A DNA stretch of 53,537 bases from Pyrinomonadaceae bacterium (lineage in GTDB: Bacteria > Acidobacteriota > Blastocatellia > Pyrinomonadales > Pyrinomonadaceae). The position numbers and the translations under genes are program-made. Position 1 is the first letter of the stretch; every line of letters starts with the position of its first letter. Shown here in pieces: positions 13,834-44,152 of the stretch. The notes under the pieces are model-generated. The model made no database searches. It saw only the letters and a program-made list of their open reading frames with translations, and was not told the origin of the DNA. Where the stretch lies: NCBI GenBank assembly GCA_040005335.1, contig JBDTZD010000312.1, positions 1-53,537 of the forward strand, written 5' to 3'.

Positions 13834-13948
13834 AACTTGGAAAATTTGTTCGCAAAGTGTGTGAGAGGTTAGGCAAACTTGCGCGGAATGGGCTAAACTT
13901 TACTATTGACACTTGCGTCAAAGGTTTAAGCTCAAAGGAATCATCAAA

Positions 13949-14218
13949 ATGCTAGGACTAGGAACCACCGAACTTATTTTAATCGTCGCTGTTCTGTTTT
14001 TGCTCTTCGGCGCATCACGCTTGCCACAACTGGCAAAATCTTTGGGTCAGAGTCGCAAGGCTTTTAAAGAAGGGATGAAAGAAGCCGAAGACGATTTCGA
14101 AGATGAGGAAGAAGAAAAACGGCGGTTTAGCAAACCTCGTGCGCCACAACTTTCTGCTCTGAGCGATGACGAACTACTCGAAGAAGCTCGTCGCCGCGCC
14201 GCTGTGCGCCGCGATTAA
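13949..14218 (+). CDS. tatA: Twin-arginine translocase TatA/E family subunit
   Basis: MLGLGTTELILIVAVLFLLFGASRLPQLAKSLGQSRKAFKEG. RBS aaaggaa upstream of the ATG at 13949. Confidence 0.85.
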   Translation: MLGLGTTELILIVAVLFLLFGASRLPQLAKSLGQSRKAFKEGMKEAEDDFEDEEEEKRRFSKPRAPQLSALSDDELLEEARRRAAVRRD

Positions 14219-14237
14219 AGGGTAAAATTATTTAATT

Positions 14238-15122: not shown

Positions 15123-15946
15123 TTTTTTGTTGCCGTCACGAGCGTCATTTTTACTGTCAGCAGAAAATTATGTCCTTCATTTGAATCGTTAATGACTTTT
15201 TCGATTGTGCGCATCAATTTGACTTGTTTTGCCTCTGGAACAAAACCTGTCCAGGTCGGGAAAAGGAAATCGGAAATTAGCGGCGAGCGTAAAAATCTAT
15301 CTCCCGTTTCAAACTCAAAAAGCTCGGTGCTGGTATTTACCTCAATTTTCTTAAAACCGGCGTTTGCCGCAACATCCTCAACATCGGATATGGTCGGCAA
15401 ATTATTAATCAAATTTTCAATTTCAGCCGCCATCTCTGTCATTTCGAGCGCGTATAAAGCTTCCCAATAAATCGAGAAAAATTCGCCGAAGCTGCCCGCC
15501 GTCGGCAGCACGAACGCCACGTTGCCCTTGCGATCTACGACACGAAAAAGCTCTTGCCAAACTGCGAGCAGGCGCGTTGTAGCGAGAAAAGATGCGTCGC
15601 AAATCACTGTGCCAAAAGCCGCATCGGGAAAATTAAGCTTGTGCGGATAAGAGTTTTGAAAATGAATGGGAGCATTAACGGCTTTAGATTTGGCTTGAGC
15701 GATGTTAAGACGTTCTGCATCTGATTCAGTGCCGAACACTTCGACTTTTTCATCGAGCTTTCCTCGCAATTCAATGACATGATTGCCCGTTCCGGCTTCG
15801 ACATACAAAAATTGCCCGTCATCAGGCAGTTTAATGTTTTTATCTACAAGCTCAGCGAAGCGTTCGCTCCAATCTGTCGCCACGTAAAGATCGTGCAAAT
15901 AAGCTAGTTCTTTGGCTGATTTGTTTGACAAAGCTGCTTCCGGCAT
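15119..15946 (-). CDS. Class I SAM-dependent methyltransferase
   Basis: YVEAGTGNHVIEL motif I. AAGGAG lies 5 nt upstream of the ATG at 15946. Confidence 0.65.
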   Translation of the reverse strand: MPEAALSNKSAKELAYLHDLYVATDWSERFAELVDKNIKLPDDGQFLYVEAGTGNHVIELRGKLDEKVEVFGTESDAERLNIAQAKSKAVNAPIHFQNSYPHKLNFPDAAFGTVICDASFLATTRLLAVWQELFRVVDRKGNVAFVLPTAGSFGEFFSIYWEALYALEMTEMAAEIENLINNLPTISDVEDVAANAGFKKIEVNTSTELFEFETGDRFLRSPLISDFLFPTWTGFVPEAKQVKLMRTIEKVINDSNEGHNFLLTVKMTLVTATKN

Positions 15947-16017
15947 AATTCTCCTTCGCGTTAAATTGCTTTTCACTCAATAATACAGTAAAACGATGAA
16001 GTTTTAGAAAAAATTTT

Positions 16018-16791
16018 ATGGCGAAACATATCCGGGAACTTTTCGATCTAACAGGCAAAACTGCTATTGTCACGGGCGGCTCGCGCGGGTTGGGCAAAGA
16101 AATGGCGGAAGCGCTCGGCGAAGCAGGAGCTAAATTGATGCTCTGTGCACGGCGCGCCGAATGGCTTGAACCAACCGTTGCCGAATTTCGCGCTCGCGGT
16201 TTCGAGTGTCAAGCCGCACTCTGCGATGTCGCGCAGCCCGAACAAGTTCAAGCTGTGATTGATCAAACCACAAATGCATTCGGCAAAATTGATGTATTAA
16301 TCAACAACGCCGGAATTTCGTGGGGCGCGATGCCCGAAGAAATGCCGCTCGAACGATGGAAACAAGTTCTTGATGTTAATTTAACGGGCTGTTTTTTGTT
16401 TGCCCAAGCCGCTGGGCGCGAAATGCTCAAACAGAAAAGCGGCTCTATTATCAACATCACTTCAATTGCCGGTTTAAGTTCGAGCGCAAACGGCCCCTTT
16501 TATGCGGGTTACGCGGCGAGCAAAGCCGGATTGATTGGTTTAACGAGAGAACTTGCCGCAAGCTGGGGACGCCGCGGCGTGCGCGTCAACGCCGTTGCAC
16601 CCGGTTTTTTTCACTCGCGCCTCGCGGACGCCGTAATTGACAAATACGAAGCAGACATTCGCGAAAACAACCCGATTCCGCGCATCGGTGCGGAAGGCGA
16701 ACTCAAAGGCGTCGCGGTGTTTCTCGCTTCGGATGCGTCAAGCTACGTTACCGGACAAACAATCGTTGTGGACGGCGGAATGACTGTCTAG
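16018..16791 (+). CDS. SDR-family oxidoreductase
   Basis: TGGSRGLG cofactor motif, NNAG, YAASKAG catalytic motif. Confidence 0.85.
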   Translation: MAKHIRELFDLTGKTAIVTGGSRGLGKEMAEALGEAGAKLMLCARRAEWLEPTVAEFRARGFECQAALCDVAQPEQVQAVIDQTTNAFGKIDVLINNAGISWGAMPEEMPLERWKQVLDVNLTGCFLFAQAAGREMLKQKSGSIINITSIAGLSSSANGPFYAGYAASKAGLIGLTRELAASWGRRGVRVNAVAPGFFHSRLADAVIDKYEADIRENNPIPRIGAEGELKGVAVFLASDASSYVTGQTIVVDGGMTV

Positions 16792-23560: not shown

Positions 23561-23719
23561 TCGGTGTCTCATGCTTGAAAACAATACGGGCGACTGTATT
23601 CCATCTTGTCAAACAGTCGAATGAAACACCTTTTTTCAGTCTTTTCTCTCTGGAATAAATTTTGCTTCAGAATACCTTTTCTAAACAAAGCAGAATTTAA
23701 GTAATGGAGATTTGGATAA

Positions 23720-24000: not shown

Positions 24001-24294
24001 ATGTCTGAGATAATTGGTTGGGTGAGTTCGCTCATTCTACTGCTAACTGTTGGCAAGCAGGTTCATAAACAGTGGAAAGATGGAACGAGCGAAGGTGTTT
24101 CCAAGTGGTTATTTTTTGGACAGATTGCCGCTTCTATCGGTTTTCTGGTTTACAGCGTTTTGATTACAAACTGGGTTTTTATCGTCACCAATTCTCTAAT
24201 GGTTATTAACAGTTTAGTGGGTATTGGGATTCTGTTTTATCACCGGCAGCGTGACAATAAGAAGCAATCACAGAAATTAGCTGTCCAAAATTAA
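24001..24294 (+). CDS. SemiSWEET-like 3-TM membrane protein
   Basis: Three TM segments with the layout IIGWVSSLILLLTVGKQVHKQWK...VS...LVYSVL...N. The PQ motif is replaced by KQ. RBS aaggggg. Confidence 0.45.
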   Translation: MSEIIGWVSSLILLLTVGKQVHKQWKDGTSEGVSKWLFFGQIAASIGFLVYSVLITNWVFIVTNSLMVINSLVGIGILFYHRQRDNKKQSQKLAVQN

Positions 24295-25728: not shown

Positions 25729-26979
25729 TTAGCTAAAAACTCGTGGTGCTTGATCGCGCCAGTTGCGTGGGGCGACATTTGAGACAGCTGCGTCAATGGT
25801 TAATACGCCGAGCAGCTTGTTTGTTTCATCAACAACCGGCATCGCTGCTAAATGCGAATCAATTAACCGAAACGAAGCTGCCCGAGCTTCACCCATAGGC
25901 GACAAAACTGAGACGAATTCATCCATAATGTCCGCAACTTTATCGGTTGGTTCCGCCGTTACAATCCGTCGCAACGAAATAACGCCGCGCAAAACCCGTG
26001 AGACTCCGGTTTCGACGACATAAATAAAATAAACAAAATTCGGGTTTTTAAGCGGTTCGGTCAAAAATTGTCGCGCTTCATCAACCGTCAAATCGAGCGG
26101 AAGTGTAACAACATCATTAGTCATTACGCTGCCGACAGTGCCTTCGGGAAAACGCAGCAGTTCGAGAATTTTTGCGGCGCAATCTTTCGGCAAATTTTCC
26201 AGCGCTTTTTGGGCTTCATCTTCTTTAAGCTGCTTGATAATTTTAGCGCCAGTTTCGGGCGCGAGCAGCGCAAACATTTTCCGACTTTGCTCGTCGTCCA
26301 ATTCTTCAAAAATCTGTAATTGTTTGTCGGACGAAGTCAATTCCAGGACATCTGCTGCCAGCTTGTCCGGCAACAGTACGATTAACTCTGCAGCATGTAA
26401 ATATGGAATTAAATCAATAAATCCGGCAATTTCGCCGGGTGCAAGTTTGGTAATTCGCAGATGATATCCAGCGCCGTTGCGAACAGCATTCGGATCGCCG
26501 CGCAAAAACTCGACAAACTTCCAGTCAAACAAATTTTTTCGGTCAATTCGTCGCCACAGATTAAAACTCAAGCGCCGCAAAATTGCTGCTGTGCTTATGT
26601 CAGCGTGTGACAAAACTATTTGTTCATCGCGTTTCTCAAGCCATAAATCGTTTGCTCTCGTGACGCGCCTATTCTGTAAGTCCAAAATCAGCGCGTCGAG
26701 GACGTCGCGCACCAGCAAAACTTCGCGCGTTAAACTATCATCAGGAAACTCCTTAGCTTCTTTCAAATTTGTAGTTCGAATCTCTTTCTTCCGTAGATCA
26801 ATCAAATTGCTGTTTTTCCAGTCTAAACCGACGAATTTTCGATCATCATTCCAAAATAAAACTTGCTTGATCGGCGGATATTCTCCGTTAAGTAAATCAA
26901 CGGAGAGATCGGCGATCCGAACAGTTTGATTTTGATCATCAACCAGCCGGAAACGCCGGATTTCGGACAGCATCAGCAT
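25729..26979 (-). CDS. Soluble MgtE-like protein (PRC-like N-terminus + MgtE_N + CBS pair, no TM domain)
   Basis: Same architecture and length as 10965..12212: LHAAELIVLLPDKLAADVLELTSSDKQLQIFEELDDEQ..., then a CBS pair ending LTIDAAV. A 32-nt gap separates it from the downstream Nramp gene. Confidence 0.7.
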   Translation of the reverse strand: MLMLSEIRRFRLVDDQNQTVRIADLSVDLLNGEYPPIKQVLFWNDDRKFVGLDWKNSNLIDLRKKEIRTTNLKEAKEFPDDSLTREVLLVRDVLDALILDLQNRRVTRANDLWLEKRDEQIVLSHADISTAAILRRLSFNLWRRIDRKNLFDWKFVEFLRGDPNAVRNGAGYHLRITKLAPGEIAGFIDLIPYLHAAELIVLLPDKLAADVLELTSSDKQLQIFEELDDEQSRKMFALLAPETGAKIIKQLKEDEAQKALENLPKDCAAKILELLRFPEGTVGSVMTNDVVTLPLDLTVDEARQFLTEPLKNPNFVYFIYVVETGVSRVLRGVISLRRIVTAEPTDKVADIMDEFVSVLSPMGEARAASFRLIDSHLAAMPVVDETNKLLGVLTIDAAVSNVAPRNWRDQAPRVFS

Positions 26980-27186
26980 TAATTTAATGTTCCTTGCACG
27001 ATAAAAATACAGCCATCTGATTTGCCAAGTATGTTTATCATTCGCGGGTATCAGATAAGGAGAGAAAACGAATAATAATGACTCAATAATTTAATCTTGT
27101 GATTTATACTATATCTATAACTATTTATTCAATAAACTCAGAAAGATTTCTCTTTCACCGGTATTTATCCACGGTTACCAGATGGC

Positions 27187-27201
27187 GGCACGGCTCTTGC
27201 A
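27187..27201 (+). promoter_or_regulatory. Sigma-54 -24/-12 promoter candidate
   Basis: GGCACGgctcTTGCA matches GG-N10-GC. It ends 69 nt upstream of the ATG at 27271. Confidence 0.65.
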
Positions 27202-27270
27202 ATAGCGTTTTGCGAAACTTATACCAAACTTTGGGAAATACATTTCTAAGAGCAGATAGGGAGAAAAAAT

Positions 27271-27732
27271 ATGGCAGACGCAAATAACGCAATCTCAACC
27301 TTGAACAACTTGATACAAACTTGTAAAGACGGTGAAAACGGATTTAACGAAGCTGCTCAGGGAGTTTCGAGTGCCGACCTAAAAGACGTTTTTATGCGCT
27401 ATTCACAACAGCGTTCGCAATTTGCGGGTGAATTGCAGGAAGCTGTTAGCAAAATTGGCGGCGATCCGGAAACAAGCGGTAGTATTGCAGCATCACTTCA
27501 TCGCGGTTGGATTGATATCAAATCAGTCGTTACGGGTCAAGATGAAGGAGCGATCTTGAGTGAATGCGAACGCGGTGAGGATTCCGCGGTTGAAGCATAC
27601 CAAAACGCCCTTAAAGAGGCTTTACCATCCGAGGTTAACTCAATTGTAGAACGTCAATATACACAGGTTAAAGAGGCGCATGACCGCATTAAAGGCTTGC
27701 GAAACATGAGCAATTCGGCTTCGGGAAGCTAA
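27271..27732 (+). CDS. PA2169-family four-helix-bundle (DUF2383, ferritin-like) protein
   Basis: LNNLIQTCKDGENGFNEAA...CERGEDSAVEAYQNAL. Confidence 0.8.
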   Translation: MADANNAISTLNNLIQTCKDGENGFNEAAQGVSSADLKDVFMRYSQQRSQFAGELQEAVSKIGGDPETSGSIAASLHRGWIDIKSVVTGQDEGAILSECERGEDSAVEAYQNALKEALPSEVNSIVERQYTQVKEAHDRIKGLRNMSNSASGS

Positions 27733-27741
27733 AAATAAAAT

Positions 27742-27774
27742 AGCTGACCGGAGATTTTTAGTTTCCGGTCAGCT
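27742..27774 (+). terminator. Stem-loop after the PA2169-family gene
   Basis: agctgaccgga / tccggtcagct 11-bp stem. Weak T tract. Confidence 0.5.
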
Positions 27775-27857
27775 TTGGCAAACCATTTCTTACGCGCTAA
27801 CAACAAATTATCAAATATTCTAAATTGTTTTAATTAGTTTTTCAGGGGGGGCAGTTC

Positions 27858-28106
27858 ATGGTCAGCAAATCAGCAGTTAAGGTTTTCAAACGTAAAGACG
27901 TAGAAAGTCCAATTCACAACATCAGTGAGCCAAAAACATTAGAACCAGAAAAGGGAGTGGTTATAGCTGAACGCCACTCGCGTCGCGAGTTAGTAAATAC
28001 AGTTTCAAGTTGGGTGACGGAGCGCCGGGAGCGTAGCCGAACCGAAGAAATTGAAGGTTTGCGAAGAATCTTTGGTGACTCTGTTCCAAGTTTGAGCAGA
28101 GCTTAA
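27858..28106 (+). CDS. Hypothetical 82-aa protein
   Basis: G-rich RBS 7 nt upstream. Followed by a strong terminator. Confidence 0.35.
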   Translation: MVSKSAVKVFKRKDVESPIHNISEPKTLEPEKGVVIAERHSRRELVNTVSSWVTERRERSRTEEIEGLRRIFGDSVPSLSRA

Positions 28107-28130
28107 AAGTCATTATAAACTTAAATTAAA

Positions 28131-28162
28131 GAGGCTTGGGTTAAACCCAAGCCTCTTTTTTT
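28131..28162. terminator. Intrinsic terminator between convergent genes
   Basis: gaggcttggg-ttaaa-cccaagcctc followed by ttttttt, with an A tract upstream. Confidence 0.8.
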
Positions 28163-28194
28163 AACAACTTATTCTTGAAGTTGAATCAATCATT

Positions 28195-29643
28195 TTAAAG
28201 TCCATGCTTTTTCATCATATGGTAGAGACGTGGGCGATAAATCCCGAGCATATTAGCAGCAGCTTGTTTATTGCCGTTGGTGCGGGTGAGTGCTGCCTGC
28301 ACGATTGAGCTTTCAAGTTGCTCAAAAATATCCGTCGAGGACATTTCGGCTGTTGCGTCAGGAGCTTTGCCGACGACAACTTCACCGATTCGCGTCCAGC
28401 TCAAATCTTCCTCACTTTGATTGCTATTAATAATTACCGACTCGAGCATTTCATTAGAAAAGGTTGTTTGTTGCTGCTGCTCAAACGGCAAATCTGAAAT
28501 TTCTATTTGTTCGCCTTTGCAAAGTAAAACGGCGCGTTCGATAATGTTCTGCAATTCGCGGACATTTCCTGGAAACGCATGTGTCACTAACAGCATTTGC
28601 GCTTCGCGCGCGATACCTCGCACTTTGCGCTTGTATTTTTCAGTGTAAATTTGTAAGAAGTGTTCAGCCAGCCGCAGAATGTCGTCGGCGCGTTCACGAA
28701 GCGGCGGAACGCGAATCGTAATTGTATTAATGCGATAAAATAAATCATCCCTTAATAACCCCAATTTAATTGCATCCGCTGGTTCGCGGTTAGTTGCGGT
28801 AATAAGGCGAAAATCAACTTTCTGCGGCTTCTCGCTGCCGACTTTGGTATACATTCTTTCCTGCAAAACGCGAAGTAATTTGGGCTGTAATTCAACCGGC
28901 ATTTCGGCGATTTCGTCGAGCAACAAGCTACCACCATCGGATTGACCAATCAATCCAACTTTCTCTCCGGTCGCGCCGGTAAAGGCGCCGCGGGTGTGCC
29001 CGAATAGCTCACTTTCAATAAGTTCTTTTGGCAGAGCAGCGCAATTGACTTTGATAAACGGTTTTTTTGAGCGCAGTGAATTGTAATGAATTGCATTGGC
29101 AATTAGTTCTTTACCCGTTCCCGATTCACCGATAATCAAAATCGAAGCATCCGATGGCGCAACGCTATCAATAATCTCGTATAAATTTTGCATTGCCTTG
29201 CTACCGCCAACGATTTCTTCGTAGGTTGTGCGCGTTGCAAGCTTACCGCGTAGCTGTTTGACCTCCTGCGAGCGGCCGGAAAGTTGTAAACCACGTTCAA
29301 CTAAAACTACCAAACGATCTAGGTTAATGGGCTTTTCAACAAAATAAAATGCTCCGTGTTTAGTCGCTTCGACCGCTACCTCGACCGCACCGTAACCGGA
29401 AATTACAATCACCTCAGTTTCGGGCAGAATCTCTTTGCTGCGCTGAAGTAATTCCATACCGTCCATGTCTGGAAGGCGCAAATCCGTCAAAATCAGATCC
29501 GGTCGCTCCTCGGCAATCATTTGTAATCCTTCACTACCGAGAGTCGCAGTCAGCACTTCATAACCTTTTGTTTGTAAACTTAACTGCAAAAATCCAAGCG
29601 TATCTAAATCGTCGTCAATTGCTAAAATCTTGTTCTTAGCCAA
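28195..29643 (-). CDS. Sigma-54-dependent response regulator (NtrC family: REC + AAA+ + Fis-type HTH)
   Basis: REC domain DLILTDLRLPDMDG. GESGTGKE Walker A. GAFTGA sigma-54 contact loop. C-terminal NGNKQAAANMLGIYRPRLYHMMKKHGL. No histidine kinase gene nearby. Confidence 0.9.
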   Translation of the reverse strand: MAKNKILAIDDDLDTLGFLQLSLQTKGYEVLTATLGSEGLQMIAEERPDLILTDLRLPDMDGMELLQRSKEILPETEVIVISGYGAVEVAVEATKHGAFYFVEKPINLDRLVVLVERGLQLSGRSQEVKQLRGKLATRTTYEEIVGGSKAMQNLYEIIDSVAPSDASILIIGESGTGKELIANAIHYNSLRSKKPFIKVNCAALPKELIESELFGHTRGAFTGATGEKVGLIGQSDGGSLLLDEIAEMPVELQPKLLRVLQERMYTKVGSEKPQKVDFRLITATNREPADAIKLGLLRDDLFYRINTITIRVPPLRERADDILRLAEHFLQIYTEKYKRKVRGIAREAQMLLVTHAFPGNVRELQNIIERAVLLCKGEQIEISDLPFEQQQQTTFSNEMLESVIINSNQSEEDLSWTRIGEVVVGKAPDATAEMSSTDIFEQLESSIVQAALTRTNGNKQAAANMLGIYRPRLYHMMKKHGL

Positions 29644-29729
29644 TTTTTATCACCTTTCACCTTGAGAAACTTGAAAACTGCGGGAGCGAATACGCCAGAA
29701 CTGGCGCATCGTTATTTTTGTATAGTCAT

Positions 29730-29756
29730 TGTACGACTTCAGTACGACTTCGTACA
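29730..29756. promoter_or_regulatory. Direct repeat with 11-bp period, GTACGACTTCa x2 plus GTAC (candidate regulator site)
   Basis: tGTACGACTTCaGTACGACTTCGTACa in the divergent intergenic region between the NtrC-like and YggT-like genes. Confidence 0.3.
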
Positions 29757-29838
29757 AATCAATGCTCGCTTTTACATACAATTGAGTTTACAATCAAAGC
29801 GCGTTAAACAATATTTTTCAATGCAATTAGGAGAATCA

Positions 29839-30354
29839 ATGGATAACAAACTCGAAATTGACGAAGCACGCAGAGCCACGCAGCATGAAATGGCTAAAGC
29901 GCAAATCGAAGCCGATGTAAACCAAGAAATAGTAGCCCGCGCCGACGTTTCATCGCCCCGCGAGCAAGCCAGAGTTGACGATCTAGCACAAGATTTCCGC
30001 GGTAAAGCCGTTGATGAAATTGCTGAAACAGAGCGCGAGGTCGAACGCGGGCGAACTGTGGCACGAATTTCGCAGTTTGTTGATTACGTATTTTACTTAA
30101 TATATTCGCTCTTTCTAATCAGGTTGGTTTTAAATTTGTTGGCGGCAAATTCCAAGAATGGTTTTGTGCAGTTTATTAATGCGATCACAAATCCGATGTA
30201 CGCTCCGTTCAGAGGGATTACAAATAGTCCGTCAACATCAGAAGGCAACACTTTAGCGTTGCCAATTGTGATTGCAATAATTGCTTATTTGTTATTGCAT
30301 CTGGCAATTAACGGTTTATTACGCCTTTTGGCGCATCGGAAAACGGAAGTTTGA
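29839..30354 (+). CDS. YggT-like membrane protein with charged N-terminal domain
   Basis: AGGAGA RBS then ATG at 29839. C-terminal FINAITNPMYAPFRGI...LPIVIAIIAYLLL. The track start at 29662 is an over-extension. Confidence 0.5.
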   Translation: MDNKLEIDEARRATQHEMAKAQIEADVNQEIVARADVSSPREQARVDDLAQDFRGKAVDEIAETEREVERGRTVARISQFVDYVFYLIYSLFLIRLVLNLLAANSKNGFVQFINAITNPMYAPFRGITNSPSTSEGNTLALPIVIAIIAYLLLHLAINGLLRLLAHRKTEV

Positions 30355-30425
30355 AAATTAAAGCAAAATGATGGATAAATGACTTGAATTCATCGTTTTA
30401 ACTTATAGATTCGGAGGACAAATTT

Positions 30426-30575
30426 ATGTTGTGGACAATTGTTGTAGTTTTGTTGGTTTTGTGGGTTTTAGGTTTTGTGGCATTGCCCTCGGCAGGTTAT
30501 CTCATTCACATTTTATTAGTACTTGCCATTGCTGTGGTGTTGATTCGCCTAATTCAAGGGCGCAACCCGGTCTAA
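30426..30575 (+). CDS. lmo0937-family small membrane protein (49 aa)
   Basis: Below the track size cutoff. Translation by hand: MLWTIVVVLLVLWVLGFVALPSAGYLIHILLVLAIAVVLIRLIQGRNPV, with ggagga upstream. Confidence 0.7.
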   Translation: MLWTIVVVLLVLWVLGFVALPSAGYLIHILLVLAIAVVLIRLIQGRNPV

Positions 30576-30631
30576 AAACTCAAGGACACTTTCAAAATTT
30601 TGACCGACTAAAGAGAATTAAAAGGATATCA

Positions 30632-31096
30632 ATGAAAATGGGCAAAAATTATAATAACGAAAATGGAGAAATGCGCCGTCAAACAACTTCCAGCAGTACG
30701 AGTGATAAGTTGACTTATCTGCTTCTCGGTGGCGGCATTGGTGCTTTAGTAGCATTACTATTTGCGCCGAAAGCGGGGCAGGAACTGCGCGGCGATATTG
30801 CAGATGTAACGCGCAAAGGTTATGACAAAACCTTGGAAACAGCACAGCACTTAAAAGAACAATCAGGTACATATTATCAGCAAATCAAGGAACAAGCTGG
30901 TGATGTTTACAATGTAGCGGCTGATAAGCTGAAAGGCACCACGCAACAAGTTGGTGATAATGCCGAGAACATTGGAAACAAAGCTTTAAACGCAGCTAAA
31001 GATGCTGGCAATCAAGTAGCTGACGCCGCAAAACAAACAGCAAACAATATTAGCGGCAGCGATGACGCTCAGAAAACTCAACACCACTCGGCCTAG
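30632..31096 (+). CDS. YtxH domain-containing protein
   Basis: LLGGGIGALVALLFAPKAGQELRGDI followed by a long amphipathic helix. aaaggat RBS. The track ORF 30431 (GTG) over-extends through the lmo0937-family gene. Confidence 0.8.
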   Translation: MKMGKNYNNENGEMRRQTTSSSTSDKLTYLLLGGGIGALVALLFAPKAGQELRGDIADVTRKGYDKTLETAQHLKEQSGTYYQQIKEQAGDVYNVAADKLKGTTQQVGDNAENIGNKALNAAKDAGNQVADAAKQTANNISGSDDAQKTQHHSA

Positions 31097-31150
31097 ACAG
31101 AAACGAATATTGTAGAAATATTAAACTGAGGTAACTTTATAAAGCGCGGA

Positions 31151-31191
31151 TTTCGTCTGGAATCCGCGCTTTGTTATTTTTAATAAAGGGT
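31151..31191 (+). terminator. Intrinsic terminator after the YtxH gene
   Basis: aaagcgcggatt / aatccgcgcttt 12-bp stem followed by gttattttt. Confidence 0.75.
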
Positions 31192-31272
31192 ATTAAATAA
31201 TGATAGGCAAGAATATTTAAAATTCGTAGCGCCTTACCTCTTATCGTTTTTCTCTCGCCATCTAAAGTTATG

Positions 31273-31288
31273 TGGCATCGTACTTGCA
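31273..31288 (+). promoter_or_regulatory. Sigma-54 -24/-12 promoter candidate
   Basis: TGGCATcgtacTTGCA with GG-N10-GC spacing. It ends 144 nt upstream of the ATG at 31433. Confidence 0.65.
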
Positions 31289-31432
31289 GGTAACTGCCTG
31301 TTAGATACCTCAAATGGGTAAATTCTTCTCCTCTGTTTTTGATGTTATTTATACGAAAAGACCTTGAAAACATTTTGCCATTAAAGCTTGACCAAATAAG
31401 GTCTCAAAATTTGAGTAGTAGGAGAAATAATT

Positions 31433-33049
31433 ATGAAAAAGTTTTTAGGAAGTCTCTTTGTTTTCACGTTAACCGGAGTTTTGCTTTATGTTACAAGCTG
31501 GGGGGCGTTTGCCCAAACTCGCCCATACCGTGTGAGTAACCGCCAGATTTCAAATCTGCTTGCAACAATCGAACGAGATTCGGACGCTTTTCGCAGCGCG
31601 GCAACAAATGCGCTGGACCGTAGCAGTTGGAATGGAACTCGTACCGAAGACGAAATCCAAAGCTATATCAACGATTTCGAGAATTCAACCGACGCGCTCA
31701 AAAGCAATTTTACCGACCGTCGATCGGTTAGCGCAGATGTCACAGACGTACTTAATAGAGCCGGAAACATTGATCGTTTCTTACAACAATATCGTCTTAA
31801 CACCCAAGTTTCAACAGCTTGGACGCGGGTTCGCAACGACTTAAATACGCTCGCAACTTACTATAACGTTCGGTATGATTGGACTCAAAGCAGCAATAAA
31901 TATCCAACTGACCGTTATCCAACAGGTAACACAAACAGTGCAGTTAATCGCTTAACCGGAACATATCGGCTTGATATTTCGCGTAGTTCGGACGTACAAG
32001 CAGAGATTGATCGCGCAACTACCGGCTTAAACGACAATCAACGTGATCGGGTTGGTCGCCAAGCATCACGTCGTCTTGAAGCCCCAGAGGAATTAGCGAT
32101 TGAACGCAATGGACGCAGTATCACTATTGCTTCCTCAAAATCCCCGCGCGTTACTCTCGACGCTGACGGACGCACTATTAGTGAACAGATGCCGAACGGG
32201 AAAACGATGAATGTAACGGCGACAATTTACGGTGACCAACTGACAATTAACTATGCCGGCGACCGGATGAATGATTTTTACGTCGCTTTTAATCCAGTGA
32301 GAGGAAACAACCGCAATGAGGGCGATGATCTGCGAGTCACACGCCGCATTTATCTTGAAGGAGTGAACCGTCAGATTTCGGTTGACAGCTATTACACAAA
32401 AACTTCTCCAACTGCGCAATTGGACACGATTTATCGTGGCGATAATAACGGCAATAATGGCGGAAACATTAACGACAACCGTTATCCAAGTAACAACGGC
32501 AATTTTACCGTTCCCAACGGAACGCAGCTGACTGCTGTTTTGCAAACTGATTTGGATACGCGTAATTCGAAAGAAGGCGACCGCTTTACAATGGAAGTGA
32601 ATTCACCGTCACAATACAACGGCGCAATCATCGAAGGCAAAGTTGGACGCGTTCAGCGTTCAGGTAGAGTTTCGGGTAGAGCGCAGCTTGAACTGGACTT
32701 TGAAACTATTCGAATGCGTAATGGACAAACATATAATTTTGAAGGTTTCGTTCAAAGCGCTAGAACAGCTAATGGTGACAATGTAAACATTGACAATGAA
32801 GGCGCGGTTCGCGAAGGCGACAATCAGACTAATAAAACTGTTGGACGCACGGCAATCGGGGCAACCTTAGGCGCTATTATAGGTGCCATTGCGGGCGGCG
32901 GAAGCGGTGCAGCGATTGGAGCAGGTGTGGGCGCTGGCGCTGGCGCTGGTTCAGTAATACTACAGGGACGCGATGATTTGAATCTAAAATCTGGAACTGA
33001 ATTGACAATTACAGCCAGTTCGCCGCGCGACATAGCCAATAACAGATAA
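31433..33049 (+). CDS. Secreted protein of unknown function with C-terminal glycine-zipper segment
   Basis: Signal peptide MKKFLGSLFVFTLTGVLLYVTSWGAFAQ. Asn/Gly-rich linker. GATLGAIIGAIAGGGSGAAIGAGVGAGAGAGS near the C-terminus. Confidence 0.6.
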   Translation: MKKFLGSLFVFTLTGVLLYVTSWGAFAQTRPYRVSNRQISNLLATIERDSDAFRSAATNALDRSSWNGTRTEDEIQSYINDFENSTDALKSNFTDRRSVSADVTDVLNRAGNIDRFLQQYRLNTQVSTAWTRVRNDLNTLATYYNVRYDWTQSSNKYPTDRYPTGNTNSAVNRLTGTYRLDISRSSDVQAEIDRATTGLNDNQRDRVGRQASRRLEAPEELAIERNGRSITIASSKSPRVTLDADGRTISEQMPNGKTMNVTATIYGDQLTINYAGDRMNDFYVAFNPVRGNNRNEGDDLRVTRRIYLEGVNRQISVDSYYTKTSPTAQLDTIYRGDNNGNNGGNINDNRYPSNNGNFTVPNGTQLTAVLQTDLDTRNSKEGDRFTMEVNSPSQYNGAIIEGKVGRVQRSGRVSGRAQLELDFETIRMRNGQTYNFEGFVQSARTANGDNVNIDNEGAVREGDNQTNKTVGRTAIGATLGAIIGAIAGGGSGAAIGAGVGAGAGAGSVILQGRDDLNLKSGTELTITASSPRDIANNR

Positions 33050-33116
33050 TGGAAGAATGTAAAACATTGAAGGCGAAATGATTTAATTCATTACCCAGTT
33101 TTCAGACGTTTTTGAC

Positions 33117-33145
33117 GGGCGAGAATAATAACTCGCCCTTTTTTA
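33117..33145 (+). terminator. Intrinsic terminator
   Basis: gggcgag-aataataa-ctcgccc followed by ttttttatt. Confidence 0.7.
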
Positions 33146-33240
33146 TTGAACTGAACAAGCGTAAAAATTCTTAACAAAAACAATTGAGAATCAAACGAAA
33201 AATTAAAGATATCTGTAAACGAGCAAATTATTATCCAAAA

Positions 33241-34296
33241 TTATTTACACTTTTCATTTGCAAGTAATTTTAGTAAACCGGCTTCTTCAGGGAGGTATTC
33301 AGGTTCGAGTTTATGAATCTGGCGTTTGGTGCGCGGTACAAATTCTCCAATTGTGATGCCTTTTTCGTAACAGGCAATAACAGTAGGGTGGACGTAACTA
33401 TTGCGGCATACTGCAGGCGTGTTACCAAGCCGTTCGGCGACTGTTTTAATTATACGCACAATGTTTTTTTTAAGCTGGGAGTTATTTTCCGCAGCCCCTA
33501 TCTCGGCTAATTCCCCGGCTGCCAAAACACTCGCCCCCCAAGTTCGAAAATCTTTTGCGCTAAATTCTCCTCCGGTTGCGTTTTTGATGTAATCGTTGAT
33601 GTCGCGCGGCTTAATGGGACAAGCTTTTCCAACATCGTCTTGATAATTGAACAGTTTGCTGCCGCCCATAGCTTTTAAATCACTCATAATTGTTGCAAGT
33701 TCTTTGTCAACGACCACGCGGCGATGCCGGATGTGATGCTTGCCGACGAAATTGAAATGTAGTTCTCCATTTCGTTTGATATGCAAGTGCCGATTTCTTA
33801 AAGTCGTCACGCCATATGTTTTGTAAAGTTTGACGCTTTCTTCTGACCCGACGCGAATGTATAAATCATTTATCAGGCGAATCATGACCGCCAGCACTTT
33901 TGATTTCGAGTATCCTTCAAGCGCAATATCAGCGTTCAATTGTTGCCTCAAAGTCGGTAAAGCGTGTCCAAACTCAGCAACTCGGGCAAATTTTATGGCT
34001 TGCCGTGCGATGGAAAACTTTTCGTTATATCGGTACTGAATACGCCCGGCTGTATCAATTCCAATTGCCTGCAATTTGCCGCGCGGACTTGGGCAAATTC
34101 GCACTTCCTTCCAGGCTGGCGGAATTACAAGAGATTTAATACGCTCAAGTTCCGTTTGAGCAGTTATTTTTTGGCCTTCAGCATTGACGTAGCGAAAATT
34201 GCGTTGTCCCAAACCGATGCGCCGAATCCATCTTATGCGGCTGCCGCGTTCAAGAACGCCGTTCACCTTTGAAGATTCATCATTTGAATTTTTCAT
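33241..34296 (-). CDS. Type IB DNA topoisomerase (bacterial/poxvirus type)
   Basis: LVIPPAWKEVRI, TTLRNRH, FVGKHH, AKDFRTWGASV, and CRNSYVHP carrying the catalytic Tyr. ATGA overlap with the upstream yihY-like gene. Confidence 0.85.
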   Translation of the reverse strand: MKNSNDESSKVNGVLERGSRIRWIRRIGLGQRNFRYVNAEGQKITAQTELERIKSLVIPPAWKEVRICPSPRGKLQAIGIDTAGRIQYRYNEKFSIARQAIKFARVAEFGHALPTLRQQLNADIALEGYSKSKVLAVMIRLINDLYIRVGSEESVKLYKTYGVTTLRNRHLHIKRNGELHFNFVGKHHIRHRRVVVDKELATIMSDLKAMGGSKLFNYQDDVGKACPIKPRDINDYIKNATGGEFSAKDFRTWGASVLAAGELAEIGAAENNSQLKKNIVRIIKTVAERLGNTPAVCRNSYVHPTVIACYEKGITIGEFVPRTKRQIHKLEPEYLPEEAGLLKLLANEKCK

Positions 34297-35453
34297 TTGC
34301 CGCGAAAACTACGCACAATTCCGGTAAGTATTGAAGCTGCTGCAAAAACTTTGGTGAAGATAGTTGAGCGGATGGGAAGATGTTTATCTTTATCAGCCAA
34401 AACACTTTCGTTTGTTGAATCTTTTACCTCAAGCAACTTTGAATTTACCGAGATTGATTTTTGTTTGTCCAATATTTCTTTATCACTCACCTTCGTATCA
34501 TCTGAGGCTGGTTCAGACTGTTGTTTTGTTGCGGCTTCGCGTCCGCCGTCTCGGGGTGATTTCTCACCTTTTGCTTTTGCATCCGGCTCACCTGATTGAG
34601 CCGCTGCGTTTTCAATTTCACAATTGATTTCACCGCCAATAAGAATTGCCGCACCGGTGAAATACAGCCAAAACATCAAAATAATGACTGCACCGAGTGA
34701 GCCATAAGTCGCACTGTATGAATTAAAATATTGCAGGTAAAGTCGAAAACCGAACGAAATTAATAGCCACAAGGCTACTGCAACAACAGCCCCAGGTGTG
34801 ATAAAACGCCAACTTTGCTCTTTTATGTCTGGCGAAAAATAATAAATCAATGAAATTGACAGCAAGACAAAAGTCAATACAATCAAGTATTGCAGGATTT
34901 GCCAGATAACACTTAAAACTGCTCCGAACCCCAGCTTTGCTGTTACATAATCATTAATTTGTCCACCAAAAAGCACTAGCGTAAGCGCAGAAATAATTAA
35001 AATGGCAAGCACCACAGTGAGAAAAACTGATAGCAACCTTCGCCACCACCATGATCGTGTCTCTTTGACTTCGTAAATCTTGTTGATGCTTTGTGTCAGA
35101 GCTTCTAAACCACTCGAAGCCGCCCATAACGCTAGAAGCAAACCTATTGTTAACTTGCCTCCACTAGAAGCCTGACTTACTTCTTTAATAACGGAACTAA
35201 CTAAATCAAGAGCAGAAGAGGGTAGGACAGTTCCAAGATATGTAAATAGATTCTTTTGTAATTTATTGTCGCTACCAACTATAAAACCAAATATTGAAGT
35301 CAAAAAAATCAAGAGGGGAAACAACGAAAACAAAAAATAATAAGCCAGTTGTGCAGCACTGTCTAAAAGCCCGTCTTTCCATATTTCTTTATAAACTCGC
35401 GTACCTAATTCACGGACTGACAAGCCGCCGAGTTTCCACAATGAAGAAGCCAT
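34293..35453 (-). CDS. YihY/BrkB-family membrane protein with hydrophilic C-terminal tail
   Basis: AAQLAYYFLFSLFPLLIFL. Six hydrophobic segments. Start ATG at 35453 or TTG at 35492. Confidence 0.8.
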   Translation of the reverse strand: MASSLWKLGGLSVRELGTRVYKEIWKDGLLDSAAQLAYYFLFSLFPLLIFLTSIFGFIVGSDNKLQKNLFTYLGTVLPSSALDLVSSVIKEVSQASSGGKLTIGLLLALWAASSGLEALTQSINKIYEVKETRSWWWRRLLSVFLTVVLAILIISALTLVLFGGQINDYVTAKLGFGAVLSVIWQILQYLIVLTFVLLSISLIYYFSPDIKEQSWRFITPGAVVAVALWLLISFGFRLYLQYFNSYSATYGSLGAVIILMFWLYFTGAAILIGGEINCEIENAAAQSGEPDAKAKGEKSPRDGGREAATKQQSEPASDDTKVSDKEILDKQKSISVNSKLLEVKDSTNESVLADKDKHLPIRSTIFTKVFAAASILTGIVRSFRGK

Positions 35454-35499
35454 CGTTGTACTATGAAAATCCCCTAGAAAACTTAAATGCAAAACGTAA

Positions 35500-35545
35500 A
35501 ATGTCCAAAGCTCAGGCTTTAACTAAAAGCTGAACTTTGAACATT
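35500..35545. repeat. Intercistronic hairpin (GTCCAAAG-type)
   Basis: aatgtccaaagctcag / ctgaactttgaacatt, a 16-bp stem with 2 mismatches and a 14-nt loop. Lies between the glsB-like and yihY-like genes. Confidence 0.55.
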
Positions 35546-35561
35546 AATTTTTTGAAAAAAC

Positions 35562-35852
35562 TTAGGCTCCTATACTTCGCCCTGTTGCCAAGCGGTAGAT
35601 AGCTAAAACAACAACTGCTCCAACGACCGCTAATAATAATCCCCAAATGCTGAAACCCATTCCGGTAGTGTCTGCAGCCGCACCTGAGCCAAACATAGCT
35701 CGTCCGATGAACCCGCCCACCAGCGCACCAACTATGCCCAGAACGATAGTAATGATTGTGCTGTTTGTATCAGGTCCCGGCATTACTGCTTTGGCTATAA
35801 AGCCCGCAATCAAACCAAAAACAATCCATAATACTATATCTGTAATTCCCAT
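35562..35852 (-). CDS. GlsB/YeaQ/YmgE-family stress-response membrane protein
   Basis: WIVFGLIAGFIAKAVMPG...GIVGALVGGFIG. 96 aa. Confidence 0.85.
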   Translation of the reverse strand: MGITDIVLWIVFGLIAGFIAKAVMPGPDTNSTIITIVLGIVGALVGGFIGRAMFGSGAAADTTGMGFSIWGLLLAVVGAVVVLAIYRLATGRSIGA

Positions 35853-35949
35853 TTCTTTTTCTCCTTCTTTCGTTAAACTTCCTGTTTCTCTTTGTCAACC
35901 GTATTTTGTACGCCGACAATACTTTAATTTCTCTGTACAGAGCATAAAA

Positions 35950-35964
35950 GCAAGAACCTTGCCA
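35950..35964 (-). promoter_or_regulatory. Sigma-54 -24/-12 promoter candidate (minus strand)
   Basis: The reverse complement reads TGGCAAggttcTTGC with GG-N10-GC spacing. It ends 97 nt upstream of the ATG at 35852. Confidence 0.65.
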
Positions 35965-36222
35965 CAGGAGAAAACATCATTCGGAATATCAGCTGATGAC
36001 TAAAAACTGCTTACTTTCATTCAGGTATTTTATAGAATTCAATAATTCAGTTGAGAATACAGCTCACGGCAAATGTTACAAAGAGAGAAAAAGCATACAC
36101 AAACAATTATCACTGCCCCCGACATCACAATTGATAAAATTACGGCGTATGCCTGTAATATCACAAATAAATCAGCGTGATTGTTCCAGAACTTAAAAAA
36201 ATTGGCATTACTAAATGAAATA

Positions 36223-36238
36223 TGGCGATGTCATTGCG
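36223..36238 (+). promoter_or_regulatory. Sigma-54 -24/-12 promoter candidate (distal)
   Basis: TGGCGAtgtcaTTGCG with GG-N10-GC spacing. It ends 386 nt upstream of the ATG at 36625. Confidence 0.45.
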
Positions 36239-36333
36239 CACTTTTTATTATTGGGGTTACGCAAGGCTTCAAGGACGTTTAAGCCAGATTGAAATAATTC
36301 CATACAGTTACAGAACTGTCAGTTTTGTTAATA

Positions 36334-36349
36334 TGGTTAAACCTTTGCG
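36334..36349 (+). promoter_or_regulatory. Sigma-54 -24/-12 promoter candidate (proximal, weaker -24)
   Basis: TGGTTAaacctTTGCG with GG-N10-GC spacing. Shares the atatgg...ttgcg flanks with the distal site. Confidence 0.35.
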
Positions 36350-36624
36350 TTATATTCGACAATATTTTATATCAAGTAATTTCATTCAATTACTTACTGC
36401 CTGACTTGTCATACTCACCAGGATTTTTTGGTACACAAACGTACAGATTGAGCCGGTTATTAAGCGCAAACTTGAAGGCATCAGTTCAAAATTGGCGCGA
36501 AAGATTAGATGTTCAGAGGCGTTGGCGGCAAGCAGTTAGCAACATGTTAACCGCAAACACTGGGCTTTTGTGTCTTTGAAAAACAACTTGCTCAATTAAA
36601 TTAAGGTTGTGAGGAGATTAAGAG

Positions 36625-38073
36625 ATGGCAAATCGTTACCAAAATGATTATAACGACCAAGATTATCCGCATTACTACGATAGGGACGATCGTTATGATA
36701 GCCAGTCAGAACGCAGCAAGGATTCTGACCGCTTTCGCACAGAACAACGTAATCGTTCCGGCTCGGGAAGGGAAAACACGCAGGGCGGCTCATATGATTA
36801 CAACCAGTCCAACGAGAATTTCGGCTCTTCGGCCGTAGATAGCAACCGCGATAAGGCCATTAGAAAACAAGGCTTTGGCGGAAATGATTATGGGCGCGGT
36901 TATGATTCCAGCAATCGTGCAAATGACGATTTTGCTTCGACAAATCGTTCGGGTAACTATGATAGAGATTCGAGACGCGAAAGGCGCGATGAACGCGGCG
37001 ATTATACGCTTTACGGCTATGACCGCGATCAACGTTATGCGGATCGTTCCGGCGATTACGGCAACCAAGGTGAACGCACCAGCGATTACAGCAACAACTA
37101 CAATTATTCCGGCGGCAGTTATGCTCGGAGCGACGATGACAAGCGTCCAAGTGATGGACGCGGCGGTAGCAGCCGTTATCGCGGTGAACAAGGTAGTAAT
37201 CGCGGTGATTACGGACGAGAGCAAAGTTCAGGACAAGGTTTTTATGGACAAGGCGGTGGCTACACGGGAAGCAGCGAAAAAGGTTATGAGTATAATCGCC
37301 GTGAAGGAAATCGTAGTGAGAATCGTTTCCGCCCCCGGAGCGAAGAAGAAGAACGCGGTTGGTGGGAGAGGACAACGGACGAGGTAGCTTCATGGTTTGG
37401 CGATGATGAAGCCGCTCGTCGCCGCGAAAACGATTCACAGGAATTCGGTCAGCATCAAAATCGCGGTCAATACGGACAGCAAACATCTTTGCATCGCGGA
37501 CGAGGACCGAAAAACTATCGTCGTACCGACGAGAGAATTAAGGAAGACATAAACGACCGTTTGACTGATTACGCTTATCTGGATGCTTCGGATATTGATG
37601 TCGAAGTTTCCAGCGGAGAAGTAACTCTGACGGGCACAGTTGAAAGCCGTTATGCTAAAAGGATGGCGGAAGACATTGCTGAAAATGTTTCGAGCGTCAC
37701 AAACGTAGAAAACAGGTTGCGAGTCAAAAATCAAAATCAATCGAATGAGTACAGTGTTCAAAACCAAGCTGGGTTCTCGTCAACGAGCGCGGCGGATTCA
37801 TCCGGGACATATGGCTCGCCTGAAGATCTGGCGGCAAACTATTCAAATCAGGGTTTATCTGAAGCGTCGCCAATTGGTAAATCGGCAACTGGTGATTTAA
37901 CCGGCTCTAGCAGTTCGGTAAGTGAGACGAACAACTCAAATACTGGAACAATGGCTGCATCGGCAACCGGCGGAACTTCGACCGATGAGACGGCTACATC
38001 TGACGATAAATTCGATTCATCTGCGACTTTTTCGGAGCGCGGAGTTGATAAACTTTCAGGTTCATCAAAGTAA
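36625..38073 (+). CDS. SWFGD-motif + BON-domain protein with ~290-aa low-complexity N-terminal region
   Basis: GAGGAG RBS. The N-terminal region is R/D/G/Y/S/N/E-rich with no hydrophobic segment. ASWFGDDEAARRRE motif. BON domain DERIKEDINDRLT...IDVEVSSGEVTLTGTVESRYAKRMAEDIAENVSSVTNVENRLRV. Confidence 0.8.
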   Translation: MANRYQNDYNDQDYPHYYDRDDRYDSQSERSKDSDRFRTEQRNRSGSGRENTQGGSYDYNQSNENFGSSAVDSNRDKAIRKQGFGGNDYGRGYDSSNRANDDFASTNRSGNYDRDSRRERRDERGDYTLYGYDRDQRYADRSGDYGNQGERTSDYSNNYNYSGGSYARSDDDKRPSDGRGGSSRYRGEQGSNRGDYGREQSSGQGFYGQGGGYTGSSEKGYEYNRREGNRSENRFRPRSEEEERGWWERTTDEVASWFGDDEAARRRENDSQEFGQHQNRGQYGQQTSLHRGRGPKNYRRTDERIKEDINDRLTDYAYLDASDIDVEVSSGEVTLTGTVESRYAKRMAEDIAENVSSVTNVENRLRVKNQNQSNEYSVQNQAGFSSTSAADSSGTYGSPEDLAANYSNQGLSEASPIGKSATGDLTGSSSSVSETNNSNTGTMAASATGGTSTDETATSDDKFDSSATFSERGVDKLSGSSK

Positions 38074-43665: not shown

Positions 43666-43813
43666 ACTTTGCCGGATTGAACGTTTTCTGTCAAGCAATA
43701 GTTGCGGATAACGTCTGAGGAACAATGCCCCTGAAAACTTCGTATCAACCTTTACGCACATGACAGCATCCGATACGCAAATTGATCTATTATTAGAAAA
43801 GGAGATTTTTGAG

Positions 43814-44152
43814 ATGGCAGAATTTGAAAACGTAAGTGAGAATAGCGCGTTAGTTGCAACAGCTAACCCGTCTAACGGCAAAGATGAGAATCGCGATTAT
43901 GTTGATGGTTTGAAGACCCAGGCGCAACAATATGGGCAACAAGCTCTTGACGGTTTGAATAAAGCCAAAGATTACGCTAGCGAATATTACGGGCAGGCAA
44001 CTGAAAAGTTGAAGGATTTACAAGGCAAAGATATGAGTCAAATCGCTGAGGAAGCCAAAGACTTTGCTCGTCGCAAACCCGTTCAGGCGATTGCGATTTC
44101 AGCCGCTGTTGGTTTGGTTCTCGGATTGATTTTACGCGGTGGACGACGTTAA
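43814..44152 (+). CDS. DUF883 / ElaB / YqjD-family tail-anchored stress protein
   Basis: AAGGAG RBS. Helical hydrophilic body. C-terminal RRKPVQAIAISAAVGLVLGLILRGGRR. Confidence 0.7.
   Translation: MAEFENVSENSALVATANPSNGKDENRDYVDGLKTQAQQYGQQALDGLNKAKDYASEYYGQATEKLKDLQGKDMSQIAEEAKDFARRKPVQAIAISAAVGLVLGLILRGGRR

Follow-up and report, generated by a model that had tools for sequence, protein, structure and literature searches.

In this study, a 53,537-nucleotide stretch of DNA from a soil acidobacterium of the family Pyrinomonadaceae (Blastocatellia; contig JBDTZD010000312.1; hereafter the window, with a G+C content of 46%) was analyzed for sigma-54 promoters and the genes that they may serve. 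In the best-supported reading, the region from 23.6 to 36.4 kb forms a conserved island of ~13 kb that holds a sigma-54 regulon with five -24/-12 promoters (P1–P5), and the analysis supports this cluster of sigma-54-type promoters, situated beside the gene of an orphan NtrC-type activator, as real and conserved. The promoters probably form a dedicated regulon that the orphan regulator is likely to activate in response to an unlinked kinase, with stress of the envelope, osmotic or desiccation type as the probable trigger. Sigma-54 is usually tied to nitrogen metabolism, flagella and the cell exterior. The Acidobacteria rank among the most numerous bacteria of soils, and Pyrinomonadaceae are typical of dry soils; to our knowledge, nothing is known of the regulation of stress survival in either group.

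Sigma-54-type promoters of the island

An original prediction for this DNA had proposed five sigma-54 sites, all within one stretch of ~10 kb, which would connect stress-type genes to the neighbouring activator. The five quoted strings are all present where they had been placed. When both strands of the window were scored with a sigma-54 weight matrix, three of them (27186, 31273 and 35949) received the highest scores in the window and proved to be conserved: P5 at 35949–35964 on the minus strand (16.3 bits), P2 at 27186–27201 on the plus strand (16.0 bits) and P4 at 31273–31288 on the plus strand (15.6 bits). The fourth-ranked score belonged to P3 at 30059–30074 on the plus strand (15.4 bits). 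These top four sites cluster as had been claimed, but P1 at 23651 lies outside the claimed stretch, so that the island is wider than originally delimited, and both P1 and P3 had been overlooked. The promoters and the units assigned to them are as follows.

23651–23666, plus strand: P1, sigma-54-like promoter TGGAATAAATTTTGCT, a GGAA variant, 12.3 bits
23720–23971, plus strand: hydrophilic open reading frame (ORF) of 83 aa that leads the P1 unit and matches no Pfam family
24001–24294, plus strand: membrane protein of 97 aa, weakly matching MtN3/PQ-loop and encoded second in the P1 unit
27186–27201, plus strand: P2, sigma-54 promoter CGGCACGGCTCTTGCA, 16.0 bits
27271–27732, plus strand: PA2169-family (DUF2383) four-helix-bundle protein, P2 unit
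27858–28106, plus strand: conserved 82-aa ORF without a family, second gene of the P2 unit
30059–30074, plus strand: P3, intragenic sigma-54 promoter TGGCACGAATTTCGCA within the YGGT coding sequence, 15.4 bits
30426–30575, plus strand: lmo0937-like/DUF5670 49-aa membrane protein, P3 unit
30632–31096, plus strand: YtxH-family protein, start corrected to ATG 30632, P3 unit
31273–31288, plus strand: P4, sigma-54 promoter TGGCATCGTACTTGCA, 15.6 bits
31433–33049, plus strand: 538-aa secreted protein with a C-terminal YMGG glycine zipper (GlyZip), P4 target
35949–35964, minus strand: P5, sigma-54 promoter TGGCAAGGTTCTTGCT, 16.3 bits
33241–35852, minus strand: P5 operon, comprising Transgly_assoc (35562–35852), YihY/BrkB (34293–35492) and topoisomerase IB (33241–34296)

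A hairpin (28128–28158) lies 3' of the 82-aa ORF, and a strong terminator (31139–31174) closes the DUF5670–YtxH unit.

Whether matches of this quality occur at the density of chance, a question raised together with the prediction, depends on the pattern that is counted. Four matches of at least 15 bits were found in the window against 0.55 expected from dinucleotide shuffles, and none of 300 shuffles gave four; in 1.18 Mb of related Pyrinomonadaceae DNA there were just two such matches. The bare core GGCA-N6-TTGC, on the other hand, has three matches in the window (P2, P4 and P5) against 3.3 expected. As this equals the chance expectation, the count alone is not significant, and the significance lies in placement and conservation. 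Intergenic DNA makes up 13% of the window; P2, P4 and P5 are all intergenic and correctly oriented, with a gene 69–144 nt downstream, and they fall within 8.8 kb. The five matches to a control core with N7 spacing were all outside the island, within called coding ORFs, and the matrix scan gave no strong site in the other 40 kb of the window.

Conservation was followed in eight syntenic loci (the window, L001, L161–L165 and L167), among which the PA2169 proteins are 68–90% identical and the island proteins in general 48–90% identical. The gene order DUF2383, ORF of ~82 aa, activator (minus strand), YGGT where it is retained, DUF5670, YtxH and GlyZip is common to all eight; topoisomerase IB, BrkB and Transgly_assoc, with the BON gene divergent, are also present in five of them. 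All five promoters show GG and GC 10 bp apart in a TGGCAC-N5-TTGCW-like context, and the top matches of each locus recur at the same positions and in the same orientation across 5–8 loci, whereas the flanking intergenic DNA is diverged and poorly alignable. For P1, GGAA-N6-TTG is kept in 8/8 loci, 43–55 nt before an ORF of 70–85 aa that was called in all relatives. P2 is present in 8/8 loci (14.3–16.0 bits, 51–72 nt from the DUF2383 ATG), as is P3 (~313–355 nt before the DUF5670 start, and 75 nt in L164), while P4 precedes GlyZip in 6/7 loci and P5 precedes Transgly_assoc in 5/5 (16.1–16.9 bits, 92–98 nt from the ATG). Across the loci, P1, P2, P4 and P5 are placed 43–144 nt before start codons. 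The BON, YGGT and activator genes served as internal negative controls and had no sigma-54 site in any syntenic locus; the PA2169 homologs of L166 and L168, which have 56–61% G+C, another gene context and no activator nearby, likewise had none.

P4 could be followed further, among 63 more distant GlyZip homologs from metagenomes for which sufficient upstream sequence was available. Of these, 32 are preceded by a sense-strand site scoring 12 bits or more (14 bits or more in 24), against three on the antisense strand, and most sites lie ~65–100 nt ahead of the estimated start. In the sister clade of the activator (see below), 23 sites before GlyZip reach 14.5 bits, the window and L001 included.

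Two further types of site were noted in the related loci. In L001, L165 and L167, a hemerythrin gene divergent from the P1 unit carries a sigma-54 site of its own, AGGCACGNTGNTTGCG (L001 16772–16787, L165 6187–6202, L167 6197–6212); the window has no hemerythrin gene beside its P1 unit. The pattern TGGCAC-N5-TTGA[ACG], with GA for GC at -12, occurs at promoter-like distances before the lmo0937-like genes of L003, L081, L083, L089 and L101 and before the GlyZip genes of L123, L137, L141 and L144, and may represent a lineage-specific relaxed -12 element or decayed promoters. Within the P5 operon, topoisomerase IB and YihY/BrkB are translationally coupled (4-nt overlap) behind Transgly_assoc, an odd functional mix that is kept in five loci.

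A promoter within the YGGT coding sequence

P3 sits in the reading frame of the following gene.

29839–30354, plus strand: YGGT-family membrane protein, true ATG at 29839 (not TTG 29662), without a sigma-54 site of its own

The promoter coincides with the peptide [V/L/M]-ARISQ. In a codon alignment of seven lineage loci, its codons are fixed as NTG GCA CGN RTT TCG CAR; the residue before Ala varies although its codon always ends in TG, and the codons on either side show synonymous variation. The ARISQ peptide of eight outgroup YGGT genes is instead encoded by freely varying synonymous codons (GCA is never used for Ala, AGA is frequent for Arg, and Ser is encoded by TCC, TCT or TCG), so that no sigma-54 site arises. 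L164 has lost the YGGT gene, yet a 31-codon remnant keeps the exact P3 element, 75 nt upstream of DUF5670–YtxH. The fixed codons, when set against the outgroups, and the L164 remnant indicate that P3 is a DNA element under selection. Most simply, P3 would serve the DUF5670–YtxH unit; its transcript may also encode a short isoform consisting of only the YGGT domain, since the Pfam domain begins at ~30085. P3 thereby offers a clean example of a promoter kept within coding sequence by synonymous-site selection.

Several points weigh against taking P1–P5 as sigma-54 promoters. The weight matrix is our own approximation of the published consensus, and the bare core is no more frequent than chance. 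P1 deviates from the consensus at the -24 element (GGAA for GGCA), P3 carries TCGCA where TTGCA is expected at -12, and a search for the RpoN box revealed no rpoN gene in the window or in any fetched locus. Furthermore, P3 lies within conserved coding sequence, and the P5 element TGGCAAGGTTCTTGC is a small palindrome followed by a T-run that a simple scan flagged as terminator-like. The matches could on these grounds be ascribed to chance or to coding constraint, the genes then using sigma-70 or ECF-type promoters. We consider this highly improbable: the site positions, and not their flanks, are kept across 5–8 diverged loci, the synonymous-codon contrast and the L164 remnant argue against a coding origin of P3, the sites upstream of GlyZip homologs show a 32 versus 3 sense/antisense asymmetry, and the L001 ortholog of P5 is non-palindromic.

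Genes without a conserved site

Two of the five originally proposed sites had been assigned to the SWFGD/BON gene.

36625–38073, plus strand: SWFGD/BON protein whose N-terminus is hydrophilic and of low complexity; its gene is a syntenic neighbour and has no sigma-54 promoter

The two sites, 36223–36238 and 36334–36349 on the plus strand, score 9.3 and <9 bits, which is the chance level for the window, and are neither alignable nor conserved in L001 and L161–L163. Conservation in relatives, which had been named with the prediction as a check, is therefore seen for P2, P4 and P5 (5–8 loci) and not for this pair. A further BON promoter candidate, CGGCAAGCAGTTAGCA at 36526 (9.5 bits), was not conserved. 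With no conserved sigma-54 site before BON in 5/5 loci, the proposed sigma-54 control of this gene was not supported; the ElaB-like gene (43760–44152) has no sigma-54 site either. The BON/SWFGD, ElaB-like, YGGT and regulator genes presumably use other promoters. The N-terminal ~240 residues of the SWFGD/BON protein (36625–37350) are very hydrophilic and of low complexity (R, D, Y, G, S and N), resembling hydrophilins and LEA proteins.

The orphan activator and its relatives

The regulator gene lies between the P2 unit and the YGGT gene.

28195–29643, minus strand: orphan NtrC-type enhancer-binding response regulator with a TTG start and the domains REC, Sigma54_activat, AAA_lid_14 and HTH_8

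The original description of this protein, a REC–AAA+ (GAFTGA)–HTH activator with no adjacent kinase, was borne out. Its Pfam domains are PF00072, PF00158, PF25601 and PF02954, the last a Fis-type HTH, and D54, Walker A (GESGTGKE) and GAFTGA are intact in the sequence. No histidine kinase is encoded in the window, or within 10 kb in six relatives (L161–L165 and L167). The best PDB matches were 4L4U, 1NY5, 5EP0 and 3DZD (E 1e-82 to 1e-95), the nearest solved structures being those of Aquifex NtrC1 and NtrC4 and of LuxO. The protein does not attain the curated cut-off for any of the named NCBIfam equivalogs (AtoC, 439 versus 714; NtrC, 426 versus 559); the groups that it misses include NtrC, AtoC, ZraR, GlrR, LuxO and the PEP-CTERM regulator. 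Its nearest relatives are from Pyrinomonadaceae metagenome-assembled genomes, and close homologs of the island proteins are labelled likewise.

In a neighbour-joining tree of 102 relatives, the activators of the window and L001 are sister to a clade that adjoins GlyZip homologs, usually in the order activator, CHASE histidine kinase, GlyZip and YGGT. Among 80 loci retrieved by means of the activator protein, 77 belong to a separate paralog clade at ~55% identity, with unrelated neighbours and without island genes. In the sister-clade loci, sigma-54 sites precede a 51–56-aa membrane protein (nine loci; 11/12 homologs), YflT-domain proteins (five), hemerythrins (four), a DUF883-like gene and S8 subtilases, and the CHASE kinase and activator genes are also preceded by such sites. 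This pattern suggests that the activator lineage is accompanied by a set of small stress-type and envelope proteins that forms a sigma-54 regulon. Between the window's clade and the sister clade, the HTH regions are very similar.

Candidate enhancer elements

Short arrays of GTAC-like cores are the candidate binding sites of the activator.

29720–29760: candidate enhancer (upstream activating sequence, UAS) with four GTAY cores at 10–11 bp spacing, invariant in 8/8 loci
36430–36447: GTACnnnnnnGTAC block between the Transgly_assoc and BON genes, kept in 5/5 loci
35908–35922: GTAY-N7-GTAC element that follows the P5 promoter, within its leader, kept in 5/5 loci
26994–27044: P2 upstream blocks TTGCAYnnnAAAAATACA and AGTATG, which form a degenerate GTAY/RTAC array and are a candidate site for the activator
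23584–23599: ATAC-N8-GTAT element ~50 nt upstream of P1, with the ATACG core invariant in eight loci

The first of these consists of the block ATTGTACnnnnTCAGTACGnnnnCGTACAAATC at 29728–29760 between the activator and YGGT genes, together with a further GTAT at 29720, and is invariant in 8/8 loci. The cores of the P2 blocks are likewise invariant in 8/8 loci, including L163 and L164, in which the upstream neighbour is different. The pattern GTAC-N6/7-GTAC has three matches in the 53.5 kb, all in intergenic DNA of the island, against ~0.15 expected per pattern, and GTAY-N6/7-RTAC has five, all in the island, against 0.7 expected per pattern; every one of these matches belongs to the 29720–29760, 36430–36447 or 35908–35922 element. 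A k-mer search for perfect palindromes upstream of 63 sigma-54 sites found nothing shared, which made a Gibbs sampler necessary. Applied to the sister-clade promoters, the sampler returned TGTAT-N7-ATACA ~105 nt upstream of the -24 element, and TGTAY-N7-RTACA (at most one mismatch) is present 80–180 nt upstream of 19 of the 50 sister-clade sigma-54 promoters, ~35-fold over background. A 17-mer UAS matrix contained little information and ranked AT-rich intergenic DNA in the window; for this reason, the exact GTAC-array patterns and their conservation across loci were relied on. The GTAC array is likely to be the activator-binding site.

The arrangement of these elements does not entirely suit that assignment. 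No recognizable GTAY/RTAC array was found near P4. Enhancers usually lie ~80–150 nt upstream of the -24/-12 element, whereas in the window the distances are ~300 nt (29720–29760 to P3) and ~470 nt (the 36430 block to P5), and the 35908–35922 array is downstream of P5, in the leader. The arrays could bind a different regulator. An alternative in which P1–P5 are real sigma-54 promoters that are driven, wholly or in part, by other enhancer-binding proteins, the arrays being another factor's operators, would accommodate both the missing array at P4 and the atypical distances at P3 and P5. It would also fit the existence of several activator paralog clades in Pyrinomonadaceae and the GlyZip homologs of L095 and L097, which have strong sigma-54 sites and no activator within 10 kb. 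This alternative is nevertheless regarded as unlikely. The activator is syntenic with its presumed targets in eight loci, and in the sister clade the two still occur together in a rearranged form; the strongest array lies immediately beside the activator gene and does not vary; and the similar palindrome is enriched ~35-fold upstream of sigma-54 promoters beside the sister-clade activators. In addition, the DUF2383 genes without a nearby activator (L166 and L168) have no sigma-54 site.

Gene products and the scope of the regulon

The product families named in the original prediction were confirmed by Pfam/NCBIfam searches (PA2169/DUF2383, YtxH, Gly-zipper, Transgly_assoc, YihY/BrkB and topoisomerase IB, as well as SWFGD with BON at 36625–38073 and ElaB-like at 43760–44152), and the lmo0937-like gene corresponds to the DUF5670 ORF at 30426–30575. 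All five units encode small, mostly membrane-anchored or secreted proteins, with topoisomerase IB in addition. An AlphaFold model of the 538-aa protein, built on a 30-sequence alignment (mean pLDDT 67), contains an N-terminal four-helix bundle, a ten-stranded barrel, a second beta domain and the glycine zipper. A PDB sequence search with this protein gave no informative match; with Foldseek, the barrel matched fatty-acid-binding proteins (E 1e-5, target TM 0.65). The predicted fold hints at a lipid-binding envelope protein. The family has >4,500 members, nearly all unannotated.

The YtxH, YflT, lmo0937, YmgE/YeaQ/GlsB, ElaB/YqjD, OsmY/BON and PA2169-like families belong to RpoS, SigB or EcfG regulons elsewhere, and DUF883 and hemerythrin proteins are also hallmarks of the general stress response. 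Of the stress-typical effectors, the island contains YtxH, lmo0937/DUF5670, Transgly_assoc and PA2169, to which the relatives add YflT, DUF883-like and hemerythrin proteins. The targets are mostly small membrane and envelope proteins; a dedicated envelope, osmotic or desiccation regulon therefore fits equally well as a general-stress role.

A broader interpretation is that sigma-54 and this activator act as the master general-stress or desiccation regulator of Blastocatellia, with a large dispersed regulon in place of RpoS, SigB or EcfG. The target families, being general-stress hallmarks in other phyla, agree with it, as does the very large GlyZip family, which is often sigma-54-linked. Moreover, we know of no other general stress regulator in the phylum Acidobacteria, and none was found in the searchable literature. 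This interpretation is considered quite improbable, as the stress-type BON/SWFGD and ElaB-like genes of the window have no sigma-54 promoters, strong sites are missing from the remaining 40 kb and number two in the 1.18 Mb of related DNA, and the targets lie close together around the activator, as would be expected of a regulon that is local and dedicated. One master regulator with dispersed stress genes was not the arrangement found within the window and the related loci.

Proposed mechanism

The dedicated regulon around the orphan regulator may operate as follows. An unlinked histidine kinase, whose counterpart in the sister clade would be the adjacent CHASE-domain kinase, would phosphorylate D54 of the REC–AAA+–HTH regulator. 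The phosphorylated protein would bind the helically phased GTAY/RTAC arrays (29720–29760, 36430–36447 and 35908–35922, and the degenerate 26994–27044 and 23584–23599) and assemble its AAA+ ring, and the GAFTGA loops would remodel the closed complexes of the sigma-54 holoenzyme at P1–P5. P1 would then direct synthesis of the 83-aa and PQ-loop-like proteins, P2 of the PA2169 protein and the 82-aa ORF, P3 of lmo0937-like/DUF5670 and YtxH, P4 of the 538-aa glycine-zipper envelope protein, and P5 of Transgly_assoc, YihY/BrkB and topoisomerase IB. The output would be a burst of small, membrane-associated, protective proteins. Envelope, osmotic or desiccation-type stress is the most likely inducing signal, a choice that draws purely on the product families and on the arid-soil reputation of the family, which weakens this part of the scheme.

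Other features of the window

Outside the island, the genes of the window are housekeeping genes, and an Rfam search of the window matched no family. Two paralogous MgtE_N and CBS proteins (10965–12212 and 25729–26979) lack the MgtE membrane domain, and one has a PRC barrel; the gene at 25729–26979 adjoins an Nramp transporter at the island edge. In L168, which is from a more distant relative, a DNA polymerase A gene (13529–16375) carries an intein bearing a LAGLIDADG domain (Pfam).

Comparison with known systems

The island activator has the same REC, AAA+ (GAFTGA) and Fis-type HTH architecture as NtrC1 and NtrC4 of Aquifex aeolicus, AtoC, ZraR and LuxO, and presumably shares with the NtrC1/NtrC4 class the phosphorylation-controlled assembly of the ring. 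Unlike these regulators, it has no adjacent kinase, and its candidate targets are stress-type membrane proteins rather than nitrogen, acetoacetate, zinc or quorum genes. Among the closest precedents are PspF and the phage shock (psp) system of Enterobacteria, in which a sigma-54 activator is dedicated to a few membrane-protective proteins induced by envelope stress. However, PspF lacks a REC domain and is under the control of PspA, whereas the island activator is a response regulator, and family searches found no PspA/IM30 homolog in the island.

In Borrelia burgdorferi, the Rrp2–RpoN–RpoS pathway places an NtrC-type regulator, uncoupled from an adjacent kinase, and sigma-54 at the head of a programme for stress and adaptation. 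In that pathway, a single promoter, that of rpoS, is driven by sigma-54, and RpoS takes over from there; in the island, the putative sigma-54 promoters stand directly before the effector genes. The RpoS, SigB and EcfG regulons overlap with the island in their effector families, but these regulators are sigma-70-family factors under proteolysis or partner switching, while the island would depend on a sigma-54-class factor with an ATP-dependent activator and tight off-states.

The prediction had regarded this wiring as undescribed. In the searchable literature, no sigma-54 stress wiring of this kind was described for Acidobacteria or Blastocatellia, although a partial precedent exists in Desulfovibrio vulgaris, for which the sigma-54-dependent NtrC-type regulator DVU3305 was proposed to modulate general stress genes (PMC3333781, PMC4641369). 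DVU3305 binds beside its own gene and activates adjacent operons for membrane, hypothetical and UspA-type proteins that are upregulated under several stresses (Rajeev et al., 2011, PMC3333781; Kazakov et al., 2015, PMC4641369). Its authors described it as a general-stress system. A kinase and a Lon-protease response regulator are linked to DVU3305, which sets it apart from the island activator, as do its phylum, its target families and its GAFSGA loop. More generally, sigma-54 is viewed as a controller of the cell exterior (PMC3162934).

Implications for Pyrinomonadaceae

It is conceivable, if rather unlikely on the sequence evidence gathered here, that Blastocatellia, and perhaps Acidobacteria more widely, possess a general stress or desiccation response built on sigma-54, with an orphan regulator integrating unlinked kinases at tightly silent promoters. 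If this were true, such a response would directly switch on hydrophilin-like, membrane-stabilizing and DNA-topology proteins, and the wiring would represent a fourth, mechanistically distinct solution to general stress beside RpoS, SigB and EcfG. The locus itself provides a concrete, testable circuit of five promoters, a candidate enhancer motif and one regulator. This circuit would link sigma-54 to protein families that are under dedicated stress sigma factors in other phyla, and it marks a large uncharacterized family of envelope proteins (>4,500 members) as a recurrent sigma-54 target.

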